From sequence record PX853108.1: a stretch of 64,000 nucleotides of DNA. One strand, given 5' to 3'. Position 1 is the first letter of the stretch; the number at the start of each line of letters is the position of its first letter. Source of the stretch: a phage. The translations under genes and the position numbers were made by a program. Below are positions 24,411-39,023 of this stretch, piece by piece. The notes under the pieces are model-generated. The model did not search any database, had not been told where the DNA came from, and was given only the letters and a program-made list of their open reading frames with translations.

Positions 24411-24472
24411 TAACTGGCTTACTGTAGAGTAAGTTACCTATATACGATATAAGTTTGAATAGGAAACATGCT

Positions 24473-27400
24473 ATGTCAACATTTGACCGTCTGGCAGGTT
24501 TCGCAGACAGCATCACTAATGCTAAGCAAGTCGATGTCTCTACTGCAACCTCCCGGAAGCAAGCTGCACAGGGGCAAAGCCCTTTCCAATTAACCCCAGA
24601 TAATGCTTACAATCTACAGACTGGACGAGTAGGTAATCTTGGAATCGGTGCATACGAACCAGGTTCACTTCAGGCAGATTTCACTCAAGCCTCCCCCTTA
24701 GAAATCATTAATAAATATGGTAATGAGCAAGGTCTACAGATTCTTAATAGTCGAGCTAATGCTGCTGATGCTGTACGTCAGGACTTATCTAAACAACGTA
24801 CTAACGCAGAAGCATTTGGCGATATCCTTTCTGGTGTTGGTCTTGGTGTTGCTAATACCCTTGGGGGCATTGCTGCTCTTGGCACAGGCTTGGTCAATGA
24901 TAATGCCGGGGCATCCATTGCTTCCGGTCTTGACTGGTTGAATAAAGGTGTACACAACCTACAGTCCGATGCACTGAATGCTCGCCGTAATGTAGTACAG
25001 AACCAGAACGTAATATCTGCACAGGAAAATGAGAAACTCTATAAGCAAGATATTGCTAAAGGAGAAAGCGAACTCGTTGCTTCCCTGTCTCGCATTGGTC
25101 GTGATGCTTACGATTCTGTTGCTAATACCCTGTCTAACGGCATGGCTGCTACTGATGGTATTGCTGAAGGTGTAGGTTCTCTGTTTACTGGTGGCCCATT
25201 AATCCGTGGTGTATCTGCACTCGGTAAGGTAATGGTAGGTGGAGATAAAGCTGTTAAGGGTATTACCTTAGCTGCTGAGTTAGGTTCACGTCCTGCACGG
25301 ATTGCACAGTCTGCTGGTCGTGTTGCTGCACCTGCTATAGCAATTGGTGGTATGGAAGCTGGTGGTGCATACCAACAGACTGCTAATGAAATTATGGAAA
25401 TGCCATTCAGTGAACTGGCTGCTAAATCTCCAGTATACCAACAGCATATTAAAGATGGTTTATCTCCTGAAGAAGCACGTCGTCAGACTGCATCTGAAAC
25501 AGGTATTACTGCTGCTGGCTTAACTGCTCCAGTTGCTGCTCTTACTGGTCCACTGGTATCCAAGTTTGAACTTAACCCACTCAAGGTAGGTTCACTGGCT
25601 GGTGCTGGTTCTAACATGCTGCGTGAGACTGTAGAAGAAGGTATCCAGTCTGGTACAAGTCAGTTCGCACAAAACACTGCAATCAAGGAAAATGTTGATG
25701 CATCTCGTGACATCCTCAAAGGTGTAGGCGAACAAACTGGTCTTGGTGCATTGTATGGCTTTGGTTCTGCTGGGGTTGCTCAAGCTCCTGGTGCAACTGT
25801 TAAGGCTGCTGGTGCTGCCGTTGGTCCTGCTGTACGTACTACCCTGGCTGGTGCTTCTTTGGCTGGTAAGGCACTAGCAAAAGTAGCCTCCCCTATTACT
25901 AACATCCTGGTTCAGCGTGGTGAAGAAGTAGCTAAACGTAACGAACAGGCATCTCCTGTATCTGATGCTACGGTTAATGCTGCTGCACAGGAAGCTACTG
26001 CTCAGGCAGAACAGGCCCAGGCAACCGTACAGGAAGCAGTAGATGCAATGGATATTTCTCCAGAAGAGAAAGCTGCTGCTACCCAGTATGCTGCTGACTT
26101 AACTCAGGTAATGAAGTTTGATCCAGTAGAACTGGAACAAGCTAGCCCTACAGTCCGTGAAGCTGTTTCTGGTTCCACTAACCGTGTTGAAGCTATTCAG
26201 AAGATGGCTGACCTGGTTAATACTGCCGAAGACCCTAACGTTCAAATGGAAGCTGCAATCCAGATGTACGACAACATCATGTCTATGGATAGCTTCATTA
26301 ACCGTGACCCAGGTGCTCTGGCTAATCTGGAACAAGGCTCTCCTGCTGCTAATATCGTTGACCAATTCTCTGGCCTGATGGCTAACGTTCAGAATACACC
26401 GAAAGTACTTCGTGCATTCCGTGCTATTCATTCCATGATTCAGGAACAGGCAGAAGCAGGTAAACTGAAAGCTACTGAAGAAGCTAACCAAGCCCAGGCA
26501 AACAATATTGCCATGGCTGCTGATATGTCTCCAGAAGTACTGGATGCAGATTCAGTAAACATGGTTCTGAAACATGCAAGTGAAGGTAAGATTACACTGG
26601 GGAATCGTCAGCGTGCTGCCCTGCAATCTGCTGCTGCCTTGTTACAGGGTGCACGAGAATTTGACGCTAAAGCAGAAGAACTAGGCTTACGTCCTCAAGA
26701 CATTGTTAGTAAACAGATTAAAACCGACGAGTCTCGTTCTAATGAAGGCCAGTACTCTGCGTTGCAACATGCTAAACGCATTCGTTCTGCGTACAACTCT
26801 GGTAACTTCGATTTGGCTTCCGCTTATCTCGACGACTTTATGAAGTTCGCCCAGCACATGCAGAATAAGGTCGGAGCGTTGAATGAGCATCTGATTTCTG
26901 GGAATGCGGATAAGAATAAGTCTGTCCATTATCAGGCTCTTACTCCCTCCCGTGAATGGGTACGTAGTCGTACTGGCCTCGGTGTCAATCCGTATGATAC
27001 CAAGTCTGTTAAGTTTGCCCAGCAAGTAGGACTGGAAGCCAAGACCGTAGCTGATATTGCTAACGCACTTGCTACGGCTTACCCGGAGCTTAATGTTTCT
27101 CATGTTAAGGTTACCCCATTGGATTCCCGTTTGGACAAGCCTGCTGCCCAAGTAGTTAAAGAGTTCCGTCAGGGCAATCTTGATGCTGCTCAATCCCAAC
27201 AGACCAATGAACCAGTGAATCAGGTTGATGAATCTCCTGTTACAAAACAGGAACCAGTTACCCCTACTGTACAGACTAAACCCTCTGTTAGTGAAGCTGT
27301 TAAAACAGAACCTACTATTAAAGAGTCTAAACCACAGACTGCAAAAGAACCTGAGAACCAGTCTGAAAAACAGGATGCTGTTGAACAGCCTACTGAATCT

Positions 27401-30400
27401 GAAAGGGATGCTTATGTAAAAGAGAATACTATTTCTCAAGAAACTCTTAATAAGTATGGTGACCGTAGGGAGAGTCCTTGGCTATTTGCTGATGGTACTG
27501 TTGTTGGTTCCAATGGTGACCATATCAGCCTGTCTGATGTATTTGGTCATGATGGTTATCGTGACATGTCTTTGGATACTGGTGCTGTACGTTCTACTTT
27601 CTACAAAGGAAGTGAGCAACCGTTCGTATCCCTGCAATTGTTTGATAATCAGAAGCTAACTGCTGAACAATTCAATACTGTTCAATCATTCGTAGAAGCA
27701 AACAATGCACTGATTCAGATTGGTGTAGATACATCTGGGCTTAATACCAATAACGTTGAGAAAGAAGAAGTATCACTGGCTCAACTGAAAGCAGACTATA
27801 CCGTTGGTGGTAAACCCCTATCTCAAATGGAAACAGTGTTCCCTGTCTATAACAATGAAAAGACATCGAACCAGTTCCTTAAAGCATTTTCTCTACCAGA
27901 GGAGCCTAAGTCTCGTACCATTGGTTCTGAATCTCCTTTGACTGATGTTAAGAAAGCACTGTCTTCTGCTGCCCGCTTTGAAGCATTCACTCAAAAAGAA
28001 AATAACGCACTCACGAGTGATGTGATTAAGCGTTACCAGGATTTGTTTGATTTTGGTGAAACTTTGAAGACCACTCTGTCTGACCGTCTGGCTAAGTTCC
28101 TTGCTAACAAGAACGTTGGTAAACGTTTTGCAGAAGGTACTGAGGCTAACCGTTGGGTGGGTGGTAAGTTACTTAACATCGTAGAGAAAGATGGTGATAC
28201 CTTTAAGTTCAACGACCAGTTGTTAGAGACTGCTGTACTTGCAGGTTTGCAATGGCGACTAACTGCTACACAGAATGCTGCTGTTAAAGACATGAAAGAC
28301 GTAGCTGCTATTACTGGTGTGGAAGCATCTCTGCTACCAGAAGGTATCCTCGCAGAGTTTGAGAATGCTCAAACCTTAGTAGAGGCTACTAACTCACTGG
28401 CTCAGAAGATTGAATCCTATTGGGGGCTTAATCGTAATGCTGATGCACCATTGGGTTATACCAAGGGTATCCCAATGGCAATGGCTACAGAGATTCTGTC
28501 TTCTCTCATTGAGATGGGTGAAGTTAAAGAGTCCATGCTGGATGTGTCTGAGATTGACCCAGAATCTAATAAGACCGTTGGTTTGTATACCATTGAGAAG
28601 TTAGATGATAACGATGCCATTAATAAATTCCCTACTGCTATTGAGGAAGCAGTCCTTCTAGAACCAGTAGAGAAATTGTACTTGGGTGATGATATTCCTT
28701 CAGTGGCTCAAACTCAGTTACGTAACCCGGCTGTCAAGAATACCCCGGAACAGAAAGCTGCTCTTAAAGCAGAACAGGCTACTGAGTTCCGTGTACACAT
28801 GCCCATGGTTAACTTCTATGAAGCATTGGGTCGTGACAACATTCTGGAATTGATGGGTGCTGGTGCTCTTAACCCAGAATTGCTGAATGTGAATACTGCT
28901 AAATCTCTGGAAGGTAAAAACCTGTCCGTGTCTATGGCATATGATTCCTTGTTTGGTGTTATCAATCAGATTAAGGAACAGGAGAATGGACTGGATACAC
29001 CTATTCACTATGGTTACAACATGACCCGTGTAGGTCGTATGCAGATGCTTGGTAAAAATAACCCACAATCCAGTAAGCTGGTCCGTGAAGCAATCTTACC
29101 AACCTTCTCTACCATCGACTTGAGCAATGAAAACAGTCAAACGTTCTCCGATTTCCAGTTAGGTCTGGCTCAGGCATTGGGCATCAAAGTTCATAAAATG
29201 TCTCGCGAAGTTATGTCAGATGAACTGACTAAAGCTCTGGAAGGTAAACTGAAACCTGCCGTTGATATGATGGTTGAGTTTGATAAGTCTGGACACTTAC
29301 CTACTGATGCAGTGGATATTCTGAAGACCTCTTTGGGTAATGATAAATCATTTGTAGCTCTCATGGCTCTTATGGAATATGCCCGTTACCTTAACAGTGA
29401 TGACCGTGCCAACTTTAATACCCCACTGTACGTTGAAGCTGATGGTGTAACCAACGGACCAATCAACGCAATGGTATTAATGACTGGTGGTAAGTTCACC
29501 CCAGACTGGATTAAGAATACTGCTAAAGGTGGCTTGTTCTTCGGTAAAGCTGGCAAGACTATGAACGAGCATCATTCGCACGAGGACAGTGTTGACCTGT
29601 ATGAAGCATCCACTAATGGTCTGCAACAAGCACTGAATGAATTACGTAGTACTTACCGTAACAACGTTCCTGTTATGAACCAGATGAACCATCTCCAGAA
29701 ATTAATGGACCTGTTCATTAAAGATTTCAATCTTAAGGAAGATGGTACTCTGGACCTGAAACGTGGTATTGCGAAAAACCCACTGACCATTACCATTTAT
29801 GGTTCTGGTGCTCGTGGTATTGCTGGCAAGATGGTTAGTGCAATTACTGATACCATCTACGAACGCTTCAGTGACGTTCTACAAGCTCGTGCTGCTGACC
29901 CTAGCATTTCACCAGCTATGGCTATGTTTGGTAAGGAGGCTGCGTCTGAGGCTGATGCTCAGGCTATGCTGGATACTTTCCTTACTTCTATGGAAGCATT
30001 GACTGGCAATGTTCCGGTTATGCGTAAAGGTGAGTTGTCTATTCAGCAGGTAGAAGGTGCTCTGACCGGTAAATTAGACCCTCAGAAGTTTACTGTATCA
30101 GGCAATGCTCTGAAGAATTTACAAGAGAACATGCTTCACTTGTTCGTTGAACCAATGCGTACTGGTATCCGAAATACTGTTGGCGAAGGTTTGATGTACT
30201 CTACTGAGAATTTGCAGAAGGCTACCCAGATTCAGTCTCTGGTATTGCAGGATATGTTCCAACAGGCAGTACAGGCTAAGCTGGCAGAAAAAGAAAAAGA
30301 CCCAACATGGAAGAAAGGTGATTTCTTAACACAGAAAGAACTGAATGAAATCCAGAATAGCTTAGCTCCACTGGCTCCAATGATTGAGACTGGTTCACAG

Positions 30401-33400
30401 ACTTTCTACATTGCTGGTAGTGAGAATACTGATGTTGCTAACCAAGTATTGGCTACTAACTTAGATGACCGTATGCGTGTACCAATGAGCATCTATGCTC
30501 CTTCACAGGCAGGCGTTGCAGGTATTCCGTTTATGACCATCGGTACTGGTGATGGCATGATGATGCAGACCCTTTCTACTATGAAAGGTGCTCCGAAGAA
30601 TACCCTGAAAATCTTTGATGGTATGAACATTGGTATCAACGATATCACCGATGCAAGCCGTAAAGCTAATGAGGCTGTATATACTTCCTGGCAGGGTAAC
30701 CCTATCAAGAATGTTTATGATTCCTTTGCTAAGTTCATGAAGAATGTAGACTTCAGTAAACTGTCTGATGAAACCAAACAGGCTATCGCTAAGTCTGCTC
30801 TGGAGTATGACCAGCGTGAGGGTGCTACCGATGACCTGTTACGTGTTGGTGCTGAACAGATTGAACGTAACCTGCGTAACATTGCTTTGGGTGTAGATAT
30901 TCGTCACAAGGTAATGGACCAGGTACAGGTCACCGTTGACCAGATGGCTGCTGTTGGTGCTCCTTACGTGAACAACGGTAAAATCTCTCTGGAAGGTCTG
31001 ACTGTAGACCAGCAAGTAGCTAAGCTGAACGAACTGTTTGATGCTGAATTAAACAAACGTCGTGATGCAGTTCGTGCTGCTAAAGCAGAACCAGTGAAAG
31101 AAGTACCGGCTATGGAGAAGGTTGGTCGTGTACTGAAGTCTGGTGTACGTCTGTTGTCTAATACTGCCATTACTAAGCTGGCTAAAGAGATGTCTCCTGA
31201 ACAGCAAGCAGTATTGAAAGAAATACAGAAATCCCTCGCTGCTAAAGACTATAAGGTTGTTTACGGTACACCTGCTCAACTGGATGCTTATGCTATTGAG
31301 AAGAATATTACTCGCCCAGCACCGGAAGATATTGAAGCTGCTGAAGCTGGTAATGCATATGGCTGGACTAACTTTGAAGATAAGACCATCTACTTAGTTA
31401 CCCCTTCCTTAGAGACTCTGGTTCATGAATTGGTACATGCTACTACTTTTGAATCTGTACTGGCTCATTATGAGGGTACTCCTAATGAAGCAGTACAGAA
31501 TATTGAAGACCTGATGAACCAGTTCCTTACTCTGGATGTTAAGGATGAATCTCCGGCTGTACGTGAAGCGTATGCCGATGCACTGAATACCATTAATGGT
31601 CATTTGTCTAATGGCTTCATTGAACCCGCAATGGCTAAAGCTGCTGCATTGAACGAGTACATGGCTTGGGGTTTAACCAACCGTGAACTGATTAGCAAGC
31701 AGAAGAAAACTACTGCACTTAAAACTATGGTTCAGGCTGTATATGAAGCAATCAAACGTCTGGTATTTGGACGTAAGAAAGCTCCAGCTAATGCAGATGA
31801 TATGTTCTCTGGCTTACTGTTTAACTCTGCTGTAGTAATGCGTGGGCAAGCTCCTACTGCTGCTGTAGCTAAAGACACTACTCTGTTCCATAACAAAGCA
31901 TATGGTGACAATACTCGTCTGGAAGAGTTAGGTAAGACCTTTGATAAACTGATTACTGACTACATTGGTTCAGAACCAGTACAGCAAGTAATTCGTAAAG
32001 GTAAATTCTCTGATGCAGTAGTGAATGCAACTAAAGTAACCCGTGATGTTCAGGCTCATGGCTTCACCATGAATATGCAGGAACAACGCCTCTTCACTAA
32101 CATTGTTGCTGCATTGGCTACTGAGGCTGCTATTAACCCTGCTGCTCTTGCTCGTGCACAGGAATACTACACGCATGTTACTAAAAACCTGACTGTTGAA
32201 GCATTTATGGCTGACCCTGATAGTACTAACCCTGCTGACCGTTATTATGCACAGCAGAAGTTCGATACTATCATGGGTGCTAACAACATTGAGTTTGATG
32301 CACAAGGTCGTTCTTCCTTACTGCCTACCTTTGTTGGTCTGGCTATGGTAAGTGAAGAAGTACGTAAGGTTCTGGCTGATATTCCTGTTATGAAAGCAGA
32401 TAAGAAATCAGGCAATACTGTTGACGCAATGCTGACTAACATTGGTACTGCTGCAATGGCTAGCCTGAATGCTCGTGTAGCAGGTGATACTAAAGCCACT
32501 AACGTACAGGAAGGTATGGATGCACTGGCTCAGACAATCATGCAGACCAGTCTTAATGCAGAATCCTTCTATGATTCCGTTGCTACCCCTACTGGTAATG
32601 CTATCGACCGTGCTAACCAGTATCTGGTGGATTCTATTGATGTACTGTCTACCCGTGCTTTGGAAGGTGCTCGTGAAGTTGCAGCTAATACCAAGAACCC
32701 GTTGGTTAAAGGTGCTGCTCATGCTGCACAATTGGTAGCTGCTATTGCTACAGAGAAGAATGGTGCAATCGTAGCCGAAGGTGTTATGGCTGCAATGAAC
32801 CAGGGTAAAGTATGGCAACCCTTCCATGACCTGGTTAATGACATAATCGGACGTACTAAGAGCAATGCTTCTGTATACGATTTGATTAAAGCAGTTCGTG
32901 CACAGGTACAGGCTGACCGTCAACAGTTCCGTGAACACTTGCCTACCACTATCGCATCCAAGTTCAGCCGTAAGCTGACTAATGATGAGTGGAAAGCAAT
33001 GCATACAGGTATGGGTAAAACTGACTTAGCTGTTCTGCGTGACACTATGTCTCTGGATGAAATCCGTGACCTGCTGTCTGACCAAAAGATTGTTGACCGT
33101 GAGGTTAATAAACTGGAAGCAGATTTGCAGAAACAAGCAGGACGTAACTGGCCTCTGATTAGTCGTAAATCTAAGCAACTGGCTCAGTACATGATTAATG
33201 GTACGGTTGGTAATAACCTGTTGCGTAATGCTACTGCAATTTCTCGTTTACTGGGTGAACGTAAGACTACACGTTCTGTTGTAGATGTAGCTCAACTGGA
33301 TAAACTCATTACCCTGTATGCACTGGAAGCAATGAATAAAACTGACCGTGAGATGTTATCTTCACTGGCTCAGACAGAAATTGAAGGTATGGACTTTGCT

Positions 33401-35227
33401 ACTTCTTACCTGGTTGGTCAGCGTAAAGATGAAATGGCTAAAGCTAAGTCTGATAGTCGTGCAACCCTGAACCAGTACAAAGGGTATATTCCTGGTGAGA
33501 ACAAACAGGGTGTTAACCTGATTGTTGCTGAAGATAGTCAGTTTGCTGATTTGATTGAGAAATCCTATGTACGACTGGGTACTTATCAGGGTAGCTCTGC
33601 TAATCGTGGTCCAGCACGTAGTTACTACTTTGCACCGGTACAGGCACAGGCTCCATTCTCACAAGGTATCCTACAGAACGTTCGCAATACTGCTGGTGGC
33701 GTAGACCTTGGCACAGGCTTTACGATGGGAACCATGGTAGCTGGTCGTATTACTGACAAGCCTTCTGTAGACCGTATCACTAAAGCACTGGCTCGTGGTG
33801 AACGCGGTAATGAACCACTGCTGCCTGTATATGATGCCAATGGTAATGTGGTTGCTTACGAGCAATCCATTGACCCTAACATGCTGAAGCACATCGAAGG
33901 TGAGAACCATCTTGCTCGTGCAATTGGTGTATGGCGTGGTCGTCAGGTGGAAGAAGCTAAGGCTCAGCGTTTCAACGATATGCTGATTGAGAACCTGCAT
34001 AGCATGTACGAGAACGACATTAAGATGTCTGCTTCTAATAAGTCCCAGTACGTTAACCTTCTTGGTTCGAAACTGGACCCAGTAACTGCCGATGCTCTTA
34101 AACTGATGAACAGTGAAACTCGTCAGAAAGCAGAAAGTCTGTTTGGACCGGGTGAGTTGTGGGTACGTCGTGACATGCTCAACGATGCACTGGGTTATCG
34201 TGCAGCTTCTGTTGGTGATGCCTGGTCTGGTAATTCTCGTTGGTCCCCAGAAACACTAGATACCTTCAAGAAAGCTATGCTGGGTGTCTTTGGAAACCGT
34301 GCTTATAAGTACGTAATGGGTGGTGAGAATCTGGTTCAAAACTTAGTTAAAGAAGCCAAGACTCTGATTGTAGTTAAGTCAGTAGTCGTACCTGCTGTTA
34401 ACTTCCTGGCTAACCTTTACCAGATGGTTGCTCGTGGTGTACCTGTTAAGAACATTGCTAAGAGCATCCCACAGAAAACTGCTGAGATTAATCAGTATCT
34501 GAAATCTCGCCTGCGTCAGGTAGATGCAGAAGCAGAATTACGTGCAGCTACTAACCCTAACCAGATTCGTAAGCTGAAGGCTGAGATTCAGTCCATCACG
34601 GATAGCCATAAGCGTTTGAGTATCTGGCCTCTGTTAGAAGCTGGTGAGTTTTCTTCAATTGCAGATGCTGGTATTGGACGTGATGACATCCTGATTACTG
34701 AAGGTAAACTTCACGAATACATGGAAAAGCTGGCTGATAAGTTGCCTAAGTCTGTACGTAATGCTGGTCGTTATGCACTTATCACTAAGGATACTGCTCT
34801 CTTCCAGGGTATCCAGAAGACGGTTGAGTACTCTGACTTTATTGCTAAAGCAATCATCTATGATGAACTGACTCAGCGTAAAGGTAAGACCCGAGAAGAA
34901 GCACTCGGACGTGTAACGGAAGAGTTCATTAACTATGACCGTTTGCCTGGCCGTTTCCGTGGGTATATGGAAAGTGTTGGTCTGATGTGGTTCTACAACT
35001 TTAAGATTCGTTCTGCAAAAGTTGCAGTGTCCATGATTCGTAACAACCCAGTACATGCTGCTATGGCTATGTTGGCTCCAACTCCTACCATGTTTGGTAA
35101 CGTTGGTCTGCCTATTAAGGACAACATCTTTAGTATTGCTGCACAGGGCAACCTCGGTTACTCCTTCGGATTCGGTATGGGCTTACGTGCCCATACCCTG
35201 AACCCGTGGCTCAACCTCACTAACTAA
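24473..35227 (+). CDS. Virion-encapsidated RNA polymerase (N4 gp50-like giant vRNAP)
   Basis: ORF 24455-35227 begins at TTG; first ATG with RBS AGGAAA is 24473 (~3,584 aa). Central region has T7-like motif A (ADGVTNG, nt ~29423), motif B (RGIAKNPLTITIYG, nt ~29762) and motif C (IFDGMNIG, nt ~30611). Confidence 0.85.
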   Translation: MSTFDRLAGFADSITNAKQVDVSTATSRKQAAQGQSPFQLTPDNAYNLQTGRVGNLGIGAYEPGSLQADFTQASPLEIINKYGNEQGLQILNSRANAADAVRQDLSKQRTNAEAFGDILSGVGLGVANTLGGIAALGTGLVNDNAGASIASGLDWLNKGVHNLQSDALNARRNVVQNQNVISAQENEKLYKQDIAKGESELVASLSRIGRDAYDSVANTLSNGMAATDGIAEGVGSLFTGGPLIRGVSALGKVMVGGDKAVKGITLAAELGSRPARIAQSAGRVAAPAIAIGGMEAGGAYQQTANEIMEMPFSELAAKSPVYQQHIKDGLSPEEARRQTASETGITAAGLTAPVAALTGPLVSKFELNPLKVGSLAGAGSNMLRETVEEGIQSGTSQFAQNTAIKENVDASRDILKGVGEQTGLGALYGFGSAGVAQAPGATVKAAGAAVGPAVRTTLAGASLAGKALAKVASPITNILVQRGEEVAKRNEQASPVSDATVNAAAQEATAQAEQAQATVQEAVDAMDISPEEKAAATQYAADLTQVMKFDPVELEQASPTVREAVSGSTNRVEAIQKMADLVNTAEDPNVQMEAAIQMYDNIMSMDSFINRDPGALANLEQGSPAANIVDQFSGLMANVQNTPKVLRAFRAIHSMIQEQAEAGKLKATEEANQAQANNIAMAADMSPEVLDADSVNMVLKHASEGKITLGNRQRAALQSAAALLQGAREFDAKAEELGLRPQDIVSKQIKTDESRSNEGQYSALQHAKRIRSAYNSGNFDLASAYLDDFMKFAQHMQNKVGALNEHLISGNADKNKSVHYQALTPSREWVRSRTGLGVNPYDTKSVKFAQQVGLEAKTVADIANALATAYPELNVSHVKVTPLDSRLDKPAAQVVKEFRQGNLDAAQSQQTNEPVNQVDESPVTKQEPVTPTVQTKPSVSEAVKTEPTIKESKPQTAKEPENQSEKQDAVEQPTESERDAYVKENTISQETLNKYGDRRESPWLFADGTVVGSNGDHISLSDVFGHDGYRDMSLDTGAVRSTFYKGSEQPFVSLQLFDNQKLTAEQFNTVQSFVEANNALIQIGVDTSGLNTNNVEKEEVSLAQLKADYTVGGKPLSQMETVFPVYNNEKTSNQFLKAFSLPEEPKSRTIGSESPLTDVKKALSSAARFEAFTQKENNALTSDVIKRYQDLFDFGETLKTTLSDRLAKFLANKNVGKRFAEGTEANRWVGGKLLNIVEKDGDTFKFNDQLLETAVLAGLQWRLTATQNAAVKDMKDVAAITGVEASLLPEGILAEFENAQTLVEATNSLAQKIESYWGLNRNADAPLGYTKGIPMAMATEILSSLIEMGEVKESMLDVSEIDPESNKTVGLYTIEKLDDNDAINKFPTAIEEAVLLEPVEKLYLGDDIPSVAQTQLRNPAVKNTPEQKAALKAEQATEFRVHMPMVNFYEALGRDNILELMGAGALNPELLNVNTAKSLEGKNLSVSMAYDSLFGVINQIKEQENGLDTPIHYGYNMTRVGRMQMLGKNNPQSSKLVREAILPTFSTIDLSNENSQTFSDFQLGLAQALGIKVHKMSREVMSDELTKALEGKLKPAVDMMVEFDKSGHLPTDAVDILKTSLGNDKSFVALMALMEYARYLNSDDRANFNTPLYVEADGVTNGPINAMVLMTGGKFTPDWIKNTAKGGLFFGKAGKTMNEHHSHEDSVDLYEASTNGLQQALNELRSTYRNNVPVMNQMNHLQKLMDLFIKDFNLKEDGTLDLKRGIAKNPLTITIYGSGARGIAGKMVSAITDTIYERFSDVLQARAADPSISPAMAMFGKEAASEADAQAMLDTFLTSMEALTGNVPVMRKGELSIQQVEGALTGKLDPQKFTVSGNALKNLQENMLHLFVEPMRTGIRNTVGEGLMYSTENLQKATQIQSLVLQDMFQQAVQAKLAEKEKDPTWKKGDFLTQKELNEIQNSLAPLAPMIETGSQTFYIAGSENTDVANQVLATNLDDRMRVPMSIYAPSQAGVAGIPFMTIGTGDGMMMQTLSTMKGAPKNTLKIFDGMNIGINDITDASRKANEAVYTSWQGNPIKNVYDSFAKFMKNVDFSKLSDETKQAIAKSALEYDQREGATDDLLRVGAEQIERNLRNIALGVDIRHKVMDQVQVTVDQMAAVGAPYVNNGKISLEGLTVDQQVAKLNELFDAELNKRRDAVRAAKAEPVKEVPAMEKVGRVLKSGVRLLSNTAITKLAKEMSPEQQAVLKEIQKSLAAKDYKVVYGTPAQLDAYAIEKNITRPAPEDIEAAEAGNAYGWTNFEDKTIYLVTPSLETLVHELVHATTFESVLAHYEGTPNEAVQNIEDLMNQFLTLDVKDESPAVREAYADALNTINGHLSNGFIEPAMAKAAALNEYMAWGLTNRELISKQKKTTALKTMVQAVYEAIKRLVFGRKKAPANADDMFSGLLFNSAVVMRGQAPTAAVAKDTTLFHNKAYGDNTRLEELGKTFDKLITDYIGSEPVQQVIRKGKFSDAVVNATKVTRDVQAHGFTMNMQEQRLFTNIVAALATEAAINPAALARAQEYYTHVTKNLTVEAFMADPDSTNPADRYYAQQKFDTIMGANNIEFDAQGRSSLLPTFVGLAMVSEEVRKVLADIPVMKADKKSGNTVDAMLTNIGTAAMASLNARVAGDTKATNVQEGMDALAQTIMQTSLNAESFYDSVATPTGNAIDRANQYLVDSIDVLSTRALEGAREVAANTKNPLVKGAAHAAQLVAAIATEKNGAIVAEGVMAAMNQGKVWQPFHDLVNDIIGRTKSNASVYDLIKAVRAQVQADRQQFREHLPTTIASKFSRKLTNDEWKAMHTGMGKTDLAVLRDTMSLDEIRDLLSDQKIVDREVNKLEADLQKQAGRNWPLISRKSKQLAQYMINGTVGNNLLRNATAISRLLGERKTTRSVVDVAQLDKLITLYALEAMNKTDREMLSSLAQTEIEGMDFATSYLVGQRKDEMAKAKSDSRATLNQYKGYIPGENKQGVNLIVAEDSQFADLIEKSYVRLGTYQGSSANRGPARSYYFAPVQAQAPFSQGILQNVRNTAGGVDLGTGFTMGTMVAGRITDKPSVDRITKALARGERGNEPLLPVYDANGNVVAYEQSIDPNMLKHIEGENHLARAIGVWRGRQVEEAKAQRFNDMLIENLHSMYENDIKMSASNKSQYVNLLGSKLDPVTADALKLMNSETRQKAESLFGPGELWVRRDMLNDALGYRAASVGDAWSGNSRWSPETLDTFKKAMLGVFGNRAYKYVMGGENLVQNLVKEAKTLIVVKSVVVPAVNFLANLYQMVARGVPVKNIAKSIPQKTAEINQYLKSRLRQVDAEAELRAATNPNQIRKLKAEIQSITDSHKRLSIWPLLEAGEFSSIADAGIGRDDILITEGKLHEYMEKLADKLPKSVRNAGRYALITKDTALFQGIQKTVEYSDFIAKAIIYDELTQRKGKTREEALGRVTEEFINYDRLPGRFRGYMESVGLMWFYNFKIRSAKVAVSMIRNNPVHAAMAMLAPTPTMFGNVGLPIKDNIFSIAAQGNLGYSFGFGMGLRAHTLNPWLNLTN

Positions 35228-36174: not shown

Positions 36175-36450
36175 TCAGCTTAGTGTTGTTGATTTAACAT
36201 AGGTTTCCCGGAATATATCCGGTTTACAAGGATATAACTCCCCATGTATGCCCTGGATAATATAGTCATTAGGTGAAGCAGTTAAGATACCCTCCAAGGT
36301 TCTAATACATAATTTACTATCATTCCCAGAGAACCAGACTACCCCATTACGAAGGGCATCTACTATCCAAGCTGGTTCTTTGTTCAGATTAAGACTTCCG
36401 TCCCATTGAAAAGCTTCAATCTCAACAGGTTTTTTACGATATTTAGCCAT
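36175..36450 (-). CDS. Hypothetical protein
   Basis: ORF 36175-36558 trimmed to ATG 36450 (MAKYRKKPVEIEAFQWDG), which has AGGAGA at 7 nt; the longer form would run through a terminator hairpin. Confidence 0.45.
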   Translation of the reverse strand: MAKYRKKPVEIEAFQWDGSLNLNKEPAWIVDALRNGVVWFSGNDSKLCIRTLEGILTASPNDYIIQGIHGELYPCKPDIFRETYVKSTTLS

Positions 36451-36467
36451 AGTATTTCTCCTACTTT

Positions 36468-36497
36468 CAAATAAAAAAGTCCCTCCGAAGAGGGACT
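36468..36497 (-). terminator. Intrinsic terminator (minus strand) downstream of the tRNA region
   Basis: Stem AGTCCCTC/GAGGGACT with CGAA loop; the minus strand reads the hairpin followed by TTTTTTATTT. Confidence 0.6.
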
Positions 36498-36754
36498 TAG
36501 TAGCTTTAACGCAGCTAACGAGGCTTGTATGAGTGCTAGGATTTGTAACTCCCAGCATATCCCCACCGTTTTAGCTGACGGCAAACAGAGATTGATAGTC
36601 TCAGAGGATACTTTACTCAGGCGAGTATTATAGTCTACTCATACTCACACTACCCTAACGGGTAGTATGTTTGCAATACCTAGAGTGCCGGACTGTCTCA
36701 CCGGCATTGTCTTTAGAGTGCAATGCAATCAGGACTATGTTCTCTATTAATGAG

Positions 36755-36828
36755 TACCCACTACTGGATTTGAACCAGTGACCTTCCGATTATTAGTCGG
36801 TTGCTTTCCCCGTCTAAGCTAAGTGGGC
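36755..36828 (-). tRNA. tRNA, hand-folded anticodon AAT (Ile?); no encoded CCA
   Basis: Minus-strand sequence GCCCACT-TA-GCTT-AGACGGGGA-AAGC-A-ACCGA-CTAATAA-TCGGA-AGGTC-ACTGG-TTCAAAT-CCAGT-AGTGGGT-A: 7-bp acceptor (G1-U72), D arm, T arm with TTCAAAT loop, 7-nt anticodon loop with U33 and A37. A34 is unusual. Confidence 0.7.
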
Positions 36829-36833
36829 ATAAA

Positions 36834-36909
36834 TGGTTACCCGGACAGGATTCGAACCTGTGTCCTAGTTGGTTTACTAGTGGGGCTTTACCACTAAGCC
36901 TACCGGGTA
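36834..36909 (-). tRNA. tRNA-like gene with encoded CCA but non-canonical anticodon arm
   Basis: Minus-strand TACCCGG-TA-GGCT-TAGTGGTAA-AGCC ... ACAGG-TTCGAAT-CCTGT-CCGGGTA-A-CCA: perfect acceptor, D and T arms; the anticodon region CCACTAGTAAACCAACTAGG folds only as a 5-bp stem with 6-nt loop or 4-bp stem with 8-nt loop. Confidence 0.6.
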
Positions 36910-37493
36910 TTAATGAGTGAGTCACGCCAGACTTTAACTGGCTCCTTCTTCGCAATCCTTACATACCCCTACATAATTATTGCGTTAAGCTTTTTTGTTT
37001 AAGTTTAAGTGAAGGCGTTCTTGCTGACTCATAATAGGTTGGGCGTTTGACGAATGACTAGTTCGTTACTACCCGTTTGCCATAAGTACCTGGCGACTTT
37101 GGTTTGAGGTGGGAGTCCGAGTCCTGTACAGCCTTACCGTTCACACATTGGCAGCGTATCTAGAATAGCACTTCCGGCAACTGGATTTAACTGTTACACC
37201 TCAAATCTGGTAGGGGCGTCCAGAAGTCTCATCTGGTACTTACGCCGTCGTATGGTTACGACTTACCCCCATAATCTTTCTAATTCAGAGTAGCACTGCT
37301 CCACGTTTGGCCTTTGAACTCCGGGATGGATTAGTGCAATGCTACTTTGAATTAGTTGTCAGGGATTCCACCTGGCTCCATCTGTTTTTATAGTCACTCA
37401 GATATCGTCTGGACTCTTTACTATGGGACTCACCGGCTACTTAGAGTAACTACGGTAAATATTATTCCACAGCTTACATTGATGTCGCATCCC

Positions 37494-37577
37494 ATCAAAG
37501 AGTACACTAGCACTGGGCCACGCATAAGTGGGCATCGGCCTTCCTCCCACAGCTAATCTACTAATGTACTCATTGAT
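37494..37577. repeat. Repeat unit A bounded by 17-bp imperfect terminal inverted repeats
   Basis: 5' end ATCAAAGAGTACACTAG and 3' end CTAATGTACTCATTGAT are reverse complements at 15 of 17 positions; followed by a GC hairpin at 37582-37608. Confidence 0.5.
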
Positions 37578-37749
37578 TGGCCCCCCGTTTCTAATACATG
37601 GACGGGGGAACTCCACGGTCGTTTGATAATCAGGACGACTCACTCCTGACTGACGCTTGGCTTATTAGGCTGCCATCAGAACAACATCATCGTTTGCATT
37701 TATGTTATTGGTTCGTTTCTAAAAAACCGCATAATCGCTTACGAAAACT

Positions 37750-37850
37750 ATCAAAGAGTACACTAAGCACAGGTAGCTATCCTGCCGTCTTCTCCACCTA
37801 CACCGGCTACAGTGTAAACCTCCGCACGTTAGCTTAATGTACTCATTGAT
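37750..37850. repeat. Repeat unit B, second copy of the TIR-bounded element
   Basis: 5' ATCAAAGAGTACACTAAG and 3' CTTAATGTACTCATTGAT (16 of 18 complementary); ends nearly identical to unit A, interior diverged but shares CTTC(C)TCC(C)AC. Confidence 0.5.
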
Positions 37851-38035
37851 AGGATGTCATAATAGGGGAGGGAGGACGAGTCCCTCTTTACCCTATGATT
37901 TAGTTTGCATGTAAGACCTAACAATTCGATGCTGTAGGTAGCTATGCTATCCGACATTTAACCCAGCCCATATAGGGGCTTATGTGATTAAAATGCTCAA
38001 CATTGAGCGGTTAGTTGATAAGGGATCTGAAGCCT

Positions 38036-38063
38036 TATCCCAAAGATACTAACCTTTGGGATA
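38036..38063. other. Perfect 10-bp stem hairpin in the ORF-free region
   Basis: TATCCCAAAG-ATACTAAC-CTTTGGGATA; neighbouring hairpins at 38080-38105 (AATGGCC / CCTATAGGGAGA loop / GGCCATT) and 38164-38194 (CTGACG...GGGG-GGCCA-CCCC...CGTCAG). Confidence 0.4.
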
Positions 38064-38582
38064 TAGCCTAAGATTCAGAAATGGCCCCTATAGGGAGAGG
38101 CCATTGATTAACCCGAATGTTGCTTTACCTTTTATGTGATAACCCATTCTTAAAATAGTCTAGCTGACGGATGGGGGGCCACCCCTAGCGTCAGTGCCAT
38201 ACGGCAAAGATTAAGTTAAGAAAGGTTATGATAGGAGTTCCTATCTCAAAGGATTCTAACAGAACCCTTCACGATATTAACTACTCAACGTGAAATTCTT
38301 TGATTCCCTCGACAGGTTCTACACCCCAGGAAAAAGCTAACTTTTCCATTTAATTTTGATTGAACCAATGGACTGGGGAGAGTATTCCAATCCACTGGTT
38401 CGGTTGTTGTTGTTACTCTGGCGGCTTGTCACCACCGTTTTTATCACTGAGTTTCCAAAGTATAAGCACAGTGATGATAAATGCTATGTATGGAGCCGAC
38501 ACGTCCAGAATCCTGATAAGCAATAGCATCAGAATTACGAACACTACCACAAATAGCAGCAGCTTCTGAGCCACCTACCAGA

Positions 38583-39023
38583 TTAACTACGTTTAAGGCC
38601 AGCGAACAGTGAAGGCTTAGTAGCAGGTTTCTCTGCTGGTTCTTCAGCCTTAACTTCTTCCTGCACAACTTCTTCTTGTGCTTCTGGTTCAGTCACTGCT
38701 TCTTCTTTAGGTTCCGGCGTAGAACTCTCGTTCTGACCACCAGTAGAGGTCTGGGTTTCTTCTACCTTTACCTCTTCAACTACTTCTTCCGGCTCTGATT
38801 CTACTGGACGGTGTTTAGCTTCTTGTGGGTTCTTACGAGAACGACGAGTTTTCTTCTCTACTCCCACGGGTGGGGTATCTTCGTGAACCTCTTCGTTGAT
38901 GCCTACGGAGGCTGTACCATCTGCATTGATGACAATATTAACGTCACCAGCAAGATTGATTTGATCATCGACATAAGCCTGTACAGCAGCTTCTACTTCG
39001 GACTGGTTCAAAATGATTTGCAT
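38583..39023 (-). CDS. Acidic low-complexity protein (hypothetical)
   Basis: 146 aa; C-terminal half extremely Glu/Pro/Val-rich (EEVVEEVKVEETQ...); first gene downstream of the ORF-free region on the minus strand. Confidence 0.45.
   Translation of the reverse strand: MQIILNQSEVEAAVQAYVDDQINLAGDVNIVINADGTASVGINEEVHEDTPPVGVEKKTRRSRKNPQEAKHRPVESEPEEVVEEVKVEETQTSTGGQNESSTPEPKEEAVTEPEAQEEVVQEEVKAEEPAEKPATKPSLFAGLKRS

Follow-up and report, generated by a model that had tools for sequence, protein, structure and literature searches.

The locus considered here raises a simple question: what is a tRNA-shaped gene that carries no regular anticodon loop, and what could it be doing in a phage? The gene (hereafter, the odd tRNA) occupies positions 36834–36909 on the minus strand of a 64,000-nt stretch of phage DNA (record PX853108.1; hereafter, the window) and comprises 76 nt, including an encoded CCA. 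The window represents a Gamaleyavirus, i.e., a G7C/N4-like coliphage of the Schitoviridae. A preceding inspection of the letters (the sequence-only reading) had proposed a tRNA-like gene with a non-canonical anticodon loop at this place, and the same span was returned by ARAGORN, which called a pair of minus-strand genes in the 64 kb, tRNA-Ile(AAU) and a “tRNA-???” at exactly 36834–36909, with an “anticodon (ac)” of 2 nt. The Rfam tRNA model RF00005 (gathering threshold 29 bits) matched 36837–36909 (−) with 42.0 bits (E 1.5e-05 for the whole window), passing over 18 nt in the anticodon arm, which it handled as a local end.

The 5′ half of the RNA reads UACCCGG UA GGCUUAGUGGUAAAGCC CCA CUAGU AAACCA ACUAG GAC and is followed by ACAGG UUCGAAU CCUGU CCGGGUA A CCA. 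RNAfold arranged it into a cloverleaf (−26.1 kcal/mol, z = −2.56), the anticodon site being taken by a hairpin with a 5-bp stem, CUAGU/ACUAG, and a 6-nt loop; the sole alternative was CUAG/CUAG with an 8-nt loop, in which the closing U-A pair is open. Since RNAfold returned the 6-nt-loop cloverleaf, the earlier description of this region, which allowed just these two folds, was correct. A canonical 7-nt loop reached through an overlooked fold was found by none of ARAGORN, Rfam and RNAfold, and U33 was found in neither the 6-nt nor the 8-nt version of the loop. The parts of the gene and its neighbor are as follows.

36834..36909, minus strand: whole gene, hairpin type t1 (ARAGORN; Rfam, 42 bits; MFE cloverleaf)
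36903..36909, minus strand: 5′ strand of the acceptor stem, UACCCGG, pairing with 36838–36844 (sequence, RNAfold)
36884..36900, minus strand: D arm GGCUU-AGUGGUA-AAGCC, with A14, R15, G18 G19 and A21 in the Rfam register (Rfam, RNAfold)
36881..36883, minus strand: 3-nt linker CCA from the D helix to the hairpin (sequence, RNAfold)
36865..36880, minus strand: hairpin in place of the anticodon arm, CUAGU/ACUAG, with the loop AAACCA at 36870–36875 (ARAGORN, RNAfold)
36862..36864, minus strand: variable region GAC; C at 36862 is the “48” partner of R15 (fold, covariation)
36845..36861, minus strand: T arm ACAGG-UUCGAAU-CCUGU (Rfam, RNAfold)
36834..36844, minus strand: 3′ strand of the acceptor stem, CCGGGUA, discriminator A (36837) and CCA (36834–36836) (sequence)
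36754..36828, minus strand: adjoining canonical tRNA-Ile(AAU), 5 nt downstream of the odd tRNA (ARAGORN; Rfam, 64.8 bits)

The body of the molecule had been described as canonical, which holds for a part of it. The acceptor stem (UACCCGG/CCGGGUA) with the discriminator A and CCA, the consensus T loop (ACAGG-UUCGAAU-CCUGU) and the G18 G19 elbow of the D loop (AGUGGUA) are those of a regular tRNA. The D helix has 5 bp, which in the Rfam register corresponds to the canonical 4-bp D stem with one inserted G. The core departs from the canon: the D helix and the hairpin lie three nucleotides (CCA) apart, as against the single nucleotide (position 26) of a tRNA, and the variable region is 3 nt (GAC) instead of 4–5 nt or a long arm. 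The same is true of the anticodon arm, which lacks the combination of a 5-bp stem and a 7-nt loop with U33 and a purine at position 37. The encoded CCA, also part of the earlier description, is present in the window and not conserved in relatives, where it drifts to UCA, UUA or UCC (genomic ATCA, ATTA and CTCC).

Such a molecule might be a pseudogene, an unusual decoding tRNA or a processing or priming element, the three explanations offered by the sequence-only reading; of these, the comparative data disfavor the first two and leave the processing element as a possibility, whereas nothing was seen that would favor a priming element. The first of them, a decaying tRNA whose anticodon arm was hit by an indel and which persists by inertia, agrees with the normal tRNA length of 76 nt and the local character of the defect, as well as with the CCA drift and the loss of the gene in some relatives. 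It predicts relaxed, pair-breaking substitutions, and these were not observed. A 501-nt stretch around the odd tRNA is 98.3% identical to Escherichia phage nithesis and 88–96% identical to many other Gamaleyaviruses; the t1 gene itself was found in about 20 Gamaleyavirus records with 91–99% identity. Its 11 distinct variants align without gaps, and all of the 253 pair cells (11 variants × 23 pairs, including the tertiary 15-48) are standard, as compared with only 19–60% of the cells when the 3′ partners are slid by 1–3 columns. Both sides change in the pair 6-67 (G-C, A-U or G-U) and in the pair 49-65 (A-U, G-U or G-C), and the tertiary 15-48 pair, generally G/C, is A/U in CU10EC, a double-sided change. 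Within the hairpin, variation is restricted to loop position 5 (C, U or G) and the closing pair (U-A or U.G).

Across 15 distinct Gamaleyavirus contexts, including two unrelated upstream contexts, the t1 gene had a mean column diversity of 0.039, as compared with 0.29–0.37 for the upstream flank and 0.24 for the 3′ tail and spacer. The gene is thus the most conserved segment of its neighborhood, about ten times less variable than the upstream flank, and it stays beside tRNA-Ile even when the upstream sequence is unrelated. At the same time, it is precisely absent (an 81-nt gap) from the Bp4-type Gamaleyaviruses, which keep the tRNA-Ile. From the low diversity, the preserved pairing and this precise absence, the comparison of sequences indicates that the odd tRNA is a constrained, accessory gene rather than a decaying one, and that purifying selection acts on it. 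The case against decay also includes the compensatory changes in three helices and a tertiary pair and the retention of the tRNA body with a covarying hairpin in other phage families: the odd architecture persists in four further lineages, and the covarying hairpin is a different one in each (see below). Overall, the pseudogene explanation is largely refuted already and would be very improbable.

The wider family was revealed by blastn with a 97-nt region, which gave weaker matches (76–81%) in other phages, whose loci were then read. Its members have a common body, U1-A72, UAGGCUUA(N2)GG ... CAGGUUC(N)A(N)UCCUG, and differ in the central hairpin; along with t1, two further hairpin types are distinguished.

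t2: Enterobacter phages SABI and SonariX, Klebsiella phage 05F01 (Stephanstirmvirinae) and three IMG/VR contigs; hairpin CCCAG-(A/G)ACUUAAGA-CUGGG
t3: KP8-like Kaypoctaviruses, VLCpiP4b and NDO71 (a 136-kb myovirus, Vequintavirinae); hairpin CAUAGCA-GGCA-UGUUAUG

According to RNAfold, the t2 hairpin consists of 5 bp and a 9-nt loop, and that of t3 of 7 bp and a 4-nt loop. Each covaries: in 05F01, the t2 stem is CCCAA/UUGGG vs. CCCAG/CUGGG, whereas the t3 stem of NDO71, CGCAGCA/UGUUGCG vs. CAUAGCA/UGUUAUG, contains two compensated pairs. All three types share the displaced hairpin and a short variable region (2–3 nt; 2 nt in t2 and t3), and the loop sequence is conserved inside each type (the AGGCAU region, ACUUAAGA and AAACNA). 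In the 16 distinct family sequences, U1-A72 and C3-G70 are invariant, and double-sided changes were recorded at the pairs 2-71, 4-69, 6-67, 7-66 and 49-65. The 15/48 combination is G/C in nine of these sequences, A/U in four, G/U in two and U/U in one, and the discriminator is A in ten, G in five and C in one, with A and G both occurring among t2 copies with identical stems. RNAalifold, run on 12 sequences, showed compensatory change in 9 of the 19 consensus pairs. All copies of the family reside inside phage tRNA clusters, with tRNA-Gln as the commonest neighbor.

The KP8 tRNA cluster also harbors a second, unrelated tRNA-like gene without an anticodon (1245–1319 of the KP8 locus examined), called tRNA-??? 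by ARAGORN. It displays G3.U70, A73 and CCA, which make up the identity set for alanine and are shared with tmRNA; where the anticodon arm would be, 6 bp close a 4-nt loop (CACGAC-ACAG-GUCGUG).

The three types bear directly on the possibility of an unconventional decoder, i.e., an aminoacylated tRNA with an altered anticodon loop that would serve the phage in frameshifting, stop suppression or other recoding. The body is fully tRNA-like, including the T loop, and tRNAs with 8-nt loops are able to decode quadruplets, e.g., SufJ (PMC4238358) and engineered ones (PMC9094753). The strongest case would be t2: its 9-nt loop holds CU-UAA-GA, which is a canonical 7-nt anticodon-loop sequence (CUUAAGA, anticodon UAA) preceded by two extra bases, and among the three hairpin types it is the only one with anything like U33-NNN-R37. 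The U33/R37 arrangement is impossible in the 6-nt loop of t1 and the 4-nt loop of the KP8 type. In addition, C, U and G all occur at loop position 5 among phages that are 93–99% identical, and the discriminator switches between A and G in close relatives with identical stems, a change which most synthetases would not tolerate. The features permitting anticodon-free charging, G3.U70 and a long variable arm, are absent, and Bp4-type phages dispense with the gene. With loops of 6, 9 and 4 nt, a variable loop position 5 and a switching discriminator, a decoding role is disfavored and appears quite unlikely for the family.

Several ideas built on the loops were rejected. Stop-like or Leu-like words in the hairpins (UAG, UAA, CAG) are too short to be meaningful. 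A kissing-loop dimer was considered because of the palindrome CUUAAG in t2, an arrangement reminiscent of the HIV-1 dimerization loop; since the t1 loop contains no palindrome and the KP8 type just CAUG, this is not a feature of the family. As for a guide or antisense role, RNAduplex comparison of the loops with the neighboring ~2 kb transcript of the respective phage gave results no better than those of shuffled loops.

The distribution of the family was probed by five IUPAC pattern scans, of which three covered IMG/VR and the other two species-representative genomes and metagenomes. The 185,579 species, each represented by one genome, gave no family member, and the family sequences from metagenomes were all of type t1, t2 or t3. 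No new type emerged from the scans, including those of IMG/VR with looser patterns; what they added was canonical tRNAs (Lys, Trp, Met, Asn) or unrelated sequence. Origin from a host tRNA was rejected, as blastn with the odd tRNA matched none of 5,426 complete E. coli genomes. Where it matched canonical tRNAs of the phage collection, the alignment was partial, covering only ~30 nt of the T arm and acceptor stem. Within the reach of these searches, the family is confined to phages of Enterobacteriaceae; it has moved between unrelated phage families.

Current annotation treats these genes inconsistently. In sequence records, t1 is labeled “tRNA-OTHER”, once “tRNA-Thr”, or is unannotated; for the family as a whole, the labels are “tRNA-OTHER”, “tRNA-Undet-NNN”, “tRNA-Thr”, “tRNA-Leu” or none. 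The t1 gene is given as “tRNA-Undet-NNN” with no comment in PMC11927229, and t3 of KP8 was called Leu(CAG) by tRNAscan (PMC6950046), a call that depends on a 3-bp stem. ARAGORN gives no call at all for t2 and t3; t1 (42 bits) and the t2 of SABI (33 bits) exceed the Rfam threshold, which the t2 of 05F01 and every t3 fail to reach, and no Rfam family other than tRNA matched the odd tRNA at E up to 5. Since standard tools miss or mislabel most of its members, the family is invisible in current phage tRNA surveys. In the searchable literature, description of the odd tRNA goes no further than the above “tRNA-Undet-NNN”; there, the family, its three hairpin types and the covariation pattern appear to be undescribed, the gene being known to annotators only as a label.

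The remaining explanation from the initial list depends on the genomic surroundings. The 3,590-codon ORF 24455–35227, a virion RNA polymerase according to the annotation of relatives, ends 1.6 kb away from the odd tRNA. Directly upstream of both tRNA genes on the minus strand lies a ~1.6-kb stretch without long ORFs (36955–38583, both strands). It is a mosaic of blocks common to KP8, DS8, IME11 and others, e.g., GAGTCCAGACGATATCTGAGTGACTATAAAAACAGATGGAGCCAGGTGGAATCCCTG at ~37415–37360. The odd tRNA sits at the downstream end of this ORF-poor region, which is rich in conserved unannotated RNA elements common to very different enterobacterial phages; in this region, only the two tRNAs passed the Rfam thresholds.

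The possibility to be weighed is that the odd tRNA is an RNA-processing or stability module only (“tRNA punctuation”), its fold recruiting RNase P and 3′ enzymes to make the ends of its neighbors, the tRNA-Ile and the upstream non-coding RNAs, and the released piece being functionless. Its position between the ~1.6-kb ORF-poor region and tRNA-Ile on one strand fits this, as does the KP8 homolog located 7 nt upstream of another conserved non-coding element. The parts conserved (acceptor stem, T arm and elbow) are those known to be recognized by RNase P, and the discriminator and CCA are free to vary. However, Bp4-type phages retain both the tRNA-Ile and the upstream island without the odd tRNA. 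Furthermore, such a module would need neither the 15-48 covariation nor a stable hairpin with a lineage-conserved loop, and an ordinary tRNA would do equally well. A pure processing role is, on balance, unlikely.

A number of other elements were noted in these surroundings. A unit with a long-range stem of ~19 bp at its base, AUCAAUGAGUACAUUA...UAGUGUACUCUUUGAU, is present twice, at 37748–37855 and 37490–37578 (−). In the first copy, low-stringency ARAGORN outlined a tRNA-like fold with a long variable arm (37760–37839); the stretch of the second is matched by Kuravirus phages (SU10), and the same unit also follows the odd tRNA of KP8. The tRNA-Ile at 36754–36828 (−) is itself peculiar: its anticodon AAU starts with A34, unusual for bacteria, and its anticodon stem has only four Watson–Crick pairs with an A27.A43 mismatch. 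For tRNAs with 4-bp anticodon stems, relaxed codon reading has been proposed (PMC13092985). In the same non-coding island, the Bp4-type Gamaleyaviruses have, instead of the odd tRNA, two weak tRNA calls, “Cys(ACA)” and “Ala(CGC)”, in which several pairs are mismatched (2400–2478 and 2770–2841 of the Bp4 locus examined); the first 15 nt of these calls have no exact match in the window. The tRNA-like content of the island varies between close relatives. A conserved hairpin, GCCAG-UUAAAGU-CUGGC, is situated at 36926–36942 (−), 17 nt upstream of the odd tRNA. At 36477–36498, ~255 nt downstream of tRNA-Ile, a hairpin resembling a strong terminator, AAGTCCCTC-TTCG-GAGGGACTT with a T-run behind it, falls inside the 5′ part of the ORF 36175–36558. 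These two hairpins may bound the transcription unit.

The same ORF-poor stretch includes an unannotated conserved RNA at ~37585–37755 (−), ~800 nt upstream of the odd tRNA; within it, ~37698–37663 resembles the tag frame of a tmRNA. Its conserved 5′ part, GUUUUCGU..AGCGAUUAUGCGG..AGAAAC, precedes a frame without a start codon, GCA AAC GAU GAU GUU GUU CUG AUG GCA GCC UAA UAA, encoding ANDDVVLMAA. In length and pattern, this peptide corresponds to ANDENYALAA, the tag of E. coli tmRNA. The nucleotide differences between copies encoding ANDDVVLMAA are synonymous in the tag frame; other phages possess the tags ANDDLMMVAA, ANDNAYLMVA, ANDNAFRVAA or ANEEMYLAVA. In Rfam, the RNA gave a sub-threshold match to permuted tmRNA (33 bits, E 3e-4), and ARAGORN found the tag only at lowered stringency. 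An alanine-type tRNA-like domain (G3.U70) belonging to this RNA was searched for and not found. In two phages, a sigma-70-like promoter, judged by eye, ends ~10 nt before the conserved 5′ end. Copies of the tag RNA were found in 286 phage records, among them those of P1 and of T1-like, Ackermannviridae, lambdoid and N4-like phages. Of 5,426 E. coli genomes, 657 carry it, for the most part on P1-like plasmids, and it is unannotated among the matches listed; the papers searched contain no description of it. The odd tRNA was considered as an acceptor module for this RNA, and the idea was discarded: its pair 3-70 is C-G, not G.U, there is no complementarity between the two RNAs, the tag RNA is absent within 1.5 kb of the SABI, 05F01 and NDO71 homologs, and it occurs in many phages without the odd tRNA.

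What, then, is the odd tRNA? Selection has kept the acceptor stem, T arm, D-loop GG and 15-48 pair, that is, the upper half and elbow of a tRNA, which are recognized by RNase P, the 3′ processing and CCA enzymes, and many tRNA-binding proteins. Not kept across the family are the loop size (6, 9 or 4 nt), U33, R37, the loop sequence between lineages, the discriminator and CCA; of the features allowing anticodon-independent charging, neither G3.U70 nor a long arm was found. Because the body is retained and the decoding and charging features are not, the odd tRNA is best explained as a phage-specific, non-decoding tRNA mimic, or pseudo-tRNA, with an intact upper half and no working anticodon, to which a probability of roughly 0.45 is assigned.

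As a mimic, the odd tRNA would be transcribed on the minus strand together with the upstream ~1.6-kb non-coding region and the downstream tRNA-Ile and excised in tRNA fashion, with RNase P cutting at U1, the 3′ end being trimmed and CCA repaired or added where it is not encoded. The D-loop GG, the T loop and the 15-48 pair would then give the RNA its L shape. Since the lineage-specific hairpin that replaces the anticodon arm offers no 7-nt loop, U33 or R37, normal codon reading would be impossible, so the RNA would have to work through its body, presumably by occupying or diverting a factor which recognizes tRNA shape. Candidate factors include a host tRNA-directed nuclease or toxin and a tRNA processing or modification enzyme; the sequence contains no pointers to a particular nuclease or enzyme target. 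The hairpin would be a lineage-specific add-on to the tRNA body and, with its loop conserved within each type, a putative second contact.

The most attractive concrete version of the mimic is a decoy for a tRNA-directed host factor. Its components have precedents: a pseudo-tRNA of Bacillus cereus has a non-translational role (PMC3399842), phage DS6A possesses a tag-less tmRNA-like RNA inhibiting host tmRNA (as cited in PMC11915505), and phage tRNAs counter tRNA-cleaving defenses (PMC11555353, PMC10802454). There are arguments against the mimic as well. A stoichiometric decoy would need high abundance, and the conservation of the loop within each type suggests a specific interaction, which is not explained by the body alone. 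The t2 type, at least, could still decode, since its 9-nt loop contains the canonical CU-UAA-GA, and a pure processing role would account equally well for the conserved upper half.

A bolder extension of the mimic reading, at present doubtful, is that the three hairpins on one body represent a family of phage “anticodon-less” tRNA decoys in which the hairpin chooses the factor to be trapped. If so, the body would ensure that the RNA is made, processed and recognized, the exchangeable hairpin would pick, e.g., an immune anticodon nuclease or toxin, and the whole would constitute an RNA-only anti-defense module, mobile between unrelated enterobacterial phages within their tRNA clusters. The usual explanation for phage tRNA genes is codon supply; a more recent one is replacement of host tRNAs cleaved by immune nucleases. 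A conserved, horizontally spread, non-decoding tRNA look-alike fits neither of these explanations and suggests that phages also exploit the tRNA shape itself as a tool.

Comparison with known systems helps to place the family. With a canonical elongator tRNA (RF00005), it shares the 7-bp acceptor stem, U8, G18 G19, the 15-48 pair, the 5-bp T stem with the UUCGAAU loop, the discriminator and CCA, and the location in a phage tRNA cluster. Unlike it, the odd tRNA has no 7-nt loop, U33 or R37, its linker is 3 nt and its variable region 2–3 nt long, and the hairpin sequence is unconserved across the family. Frameshift suppressors with 8- or 9-nt loops (SufJ, PMC4238358) likewise combine a normal tRNA body with a loop other than 7 nt; they keep U33 and a purine 3′ of the extended anticodon, and their parent isoacceptor is identifiable. 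In contrast, U33 is missing from the loop of the odd tRNA in both its 6-nt and its 8-nt version, and its parent is not identifiable, as no related canonical tRNA was found in the phage and E. coli collections.

Other non-decoding RNAs contain or resemble tRNA modules, such as the Y-RNA-like YrlA of bacteria and phages, which is larger and bears a Ro-binding stem, and the “species 1 and 2” RNAs of T4, which are stable and are co-transcribed and processed with the phage tRNAs. The odd tRNA is not known to have sequence similarity to either of them. The tRNA-Other of B. cereus, in which the anticodon arm is of normal size, resembles the phage family in its tRNA shape, non-standard anticodon region and tool label “tRNA-Other”. 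It is a bacterial, chromosomal gene without sequence relation to the phage family and is reportedly non-translational and regulatory, with a phenotype (PMC3399842). The tRNA-like domain of tmRNA likewise unites acceptor, T arm and D loop and has no anticodon. The tag-less tmRNA-like RNA of DS6A is, like the odd tRNA, phage-encoded and tRNA-like and, as cited in PMC11915505, illustrates that such an RNA can interfere with a host translation factor. The tmRNA domain differs in that it needs G3.U70 for AlaRS and has a stemless D loop, while the odd tRNA has a D helix and C3-G70, the latter in 16 of 16 family sequences. By analogy, then, the closest functional counterparts of the odd tRNA would be the B. 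cereus tRNA-Other and the tRNA-like domain of tmRNA, with the phage family, belonging to neither, standing beside them.
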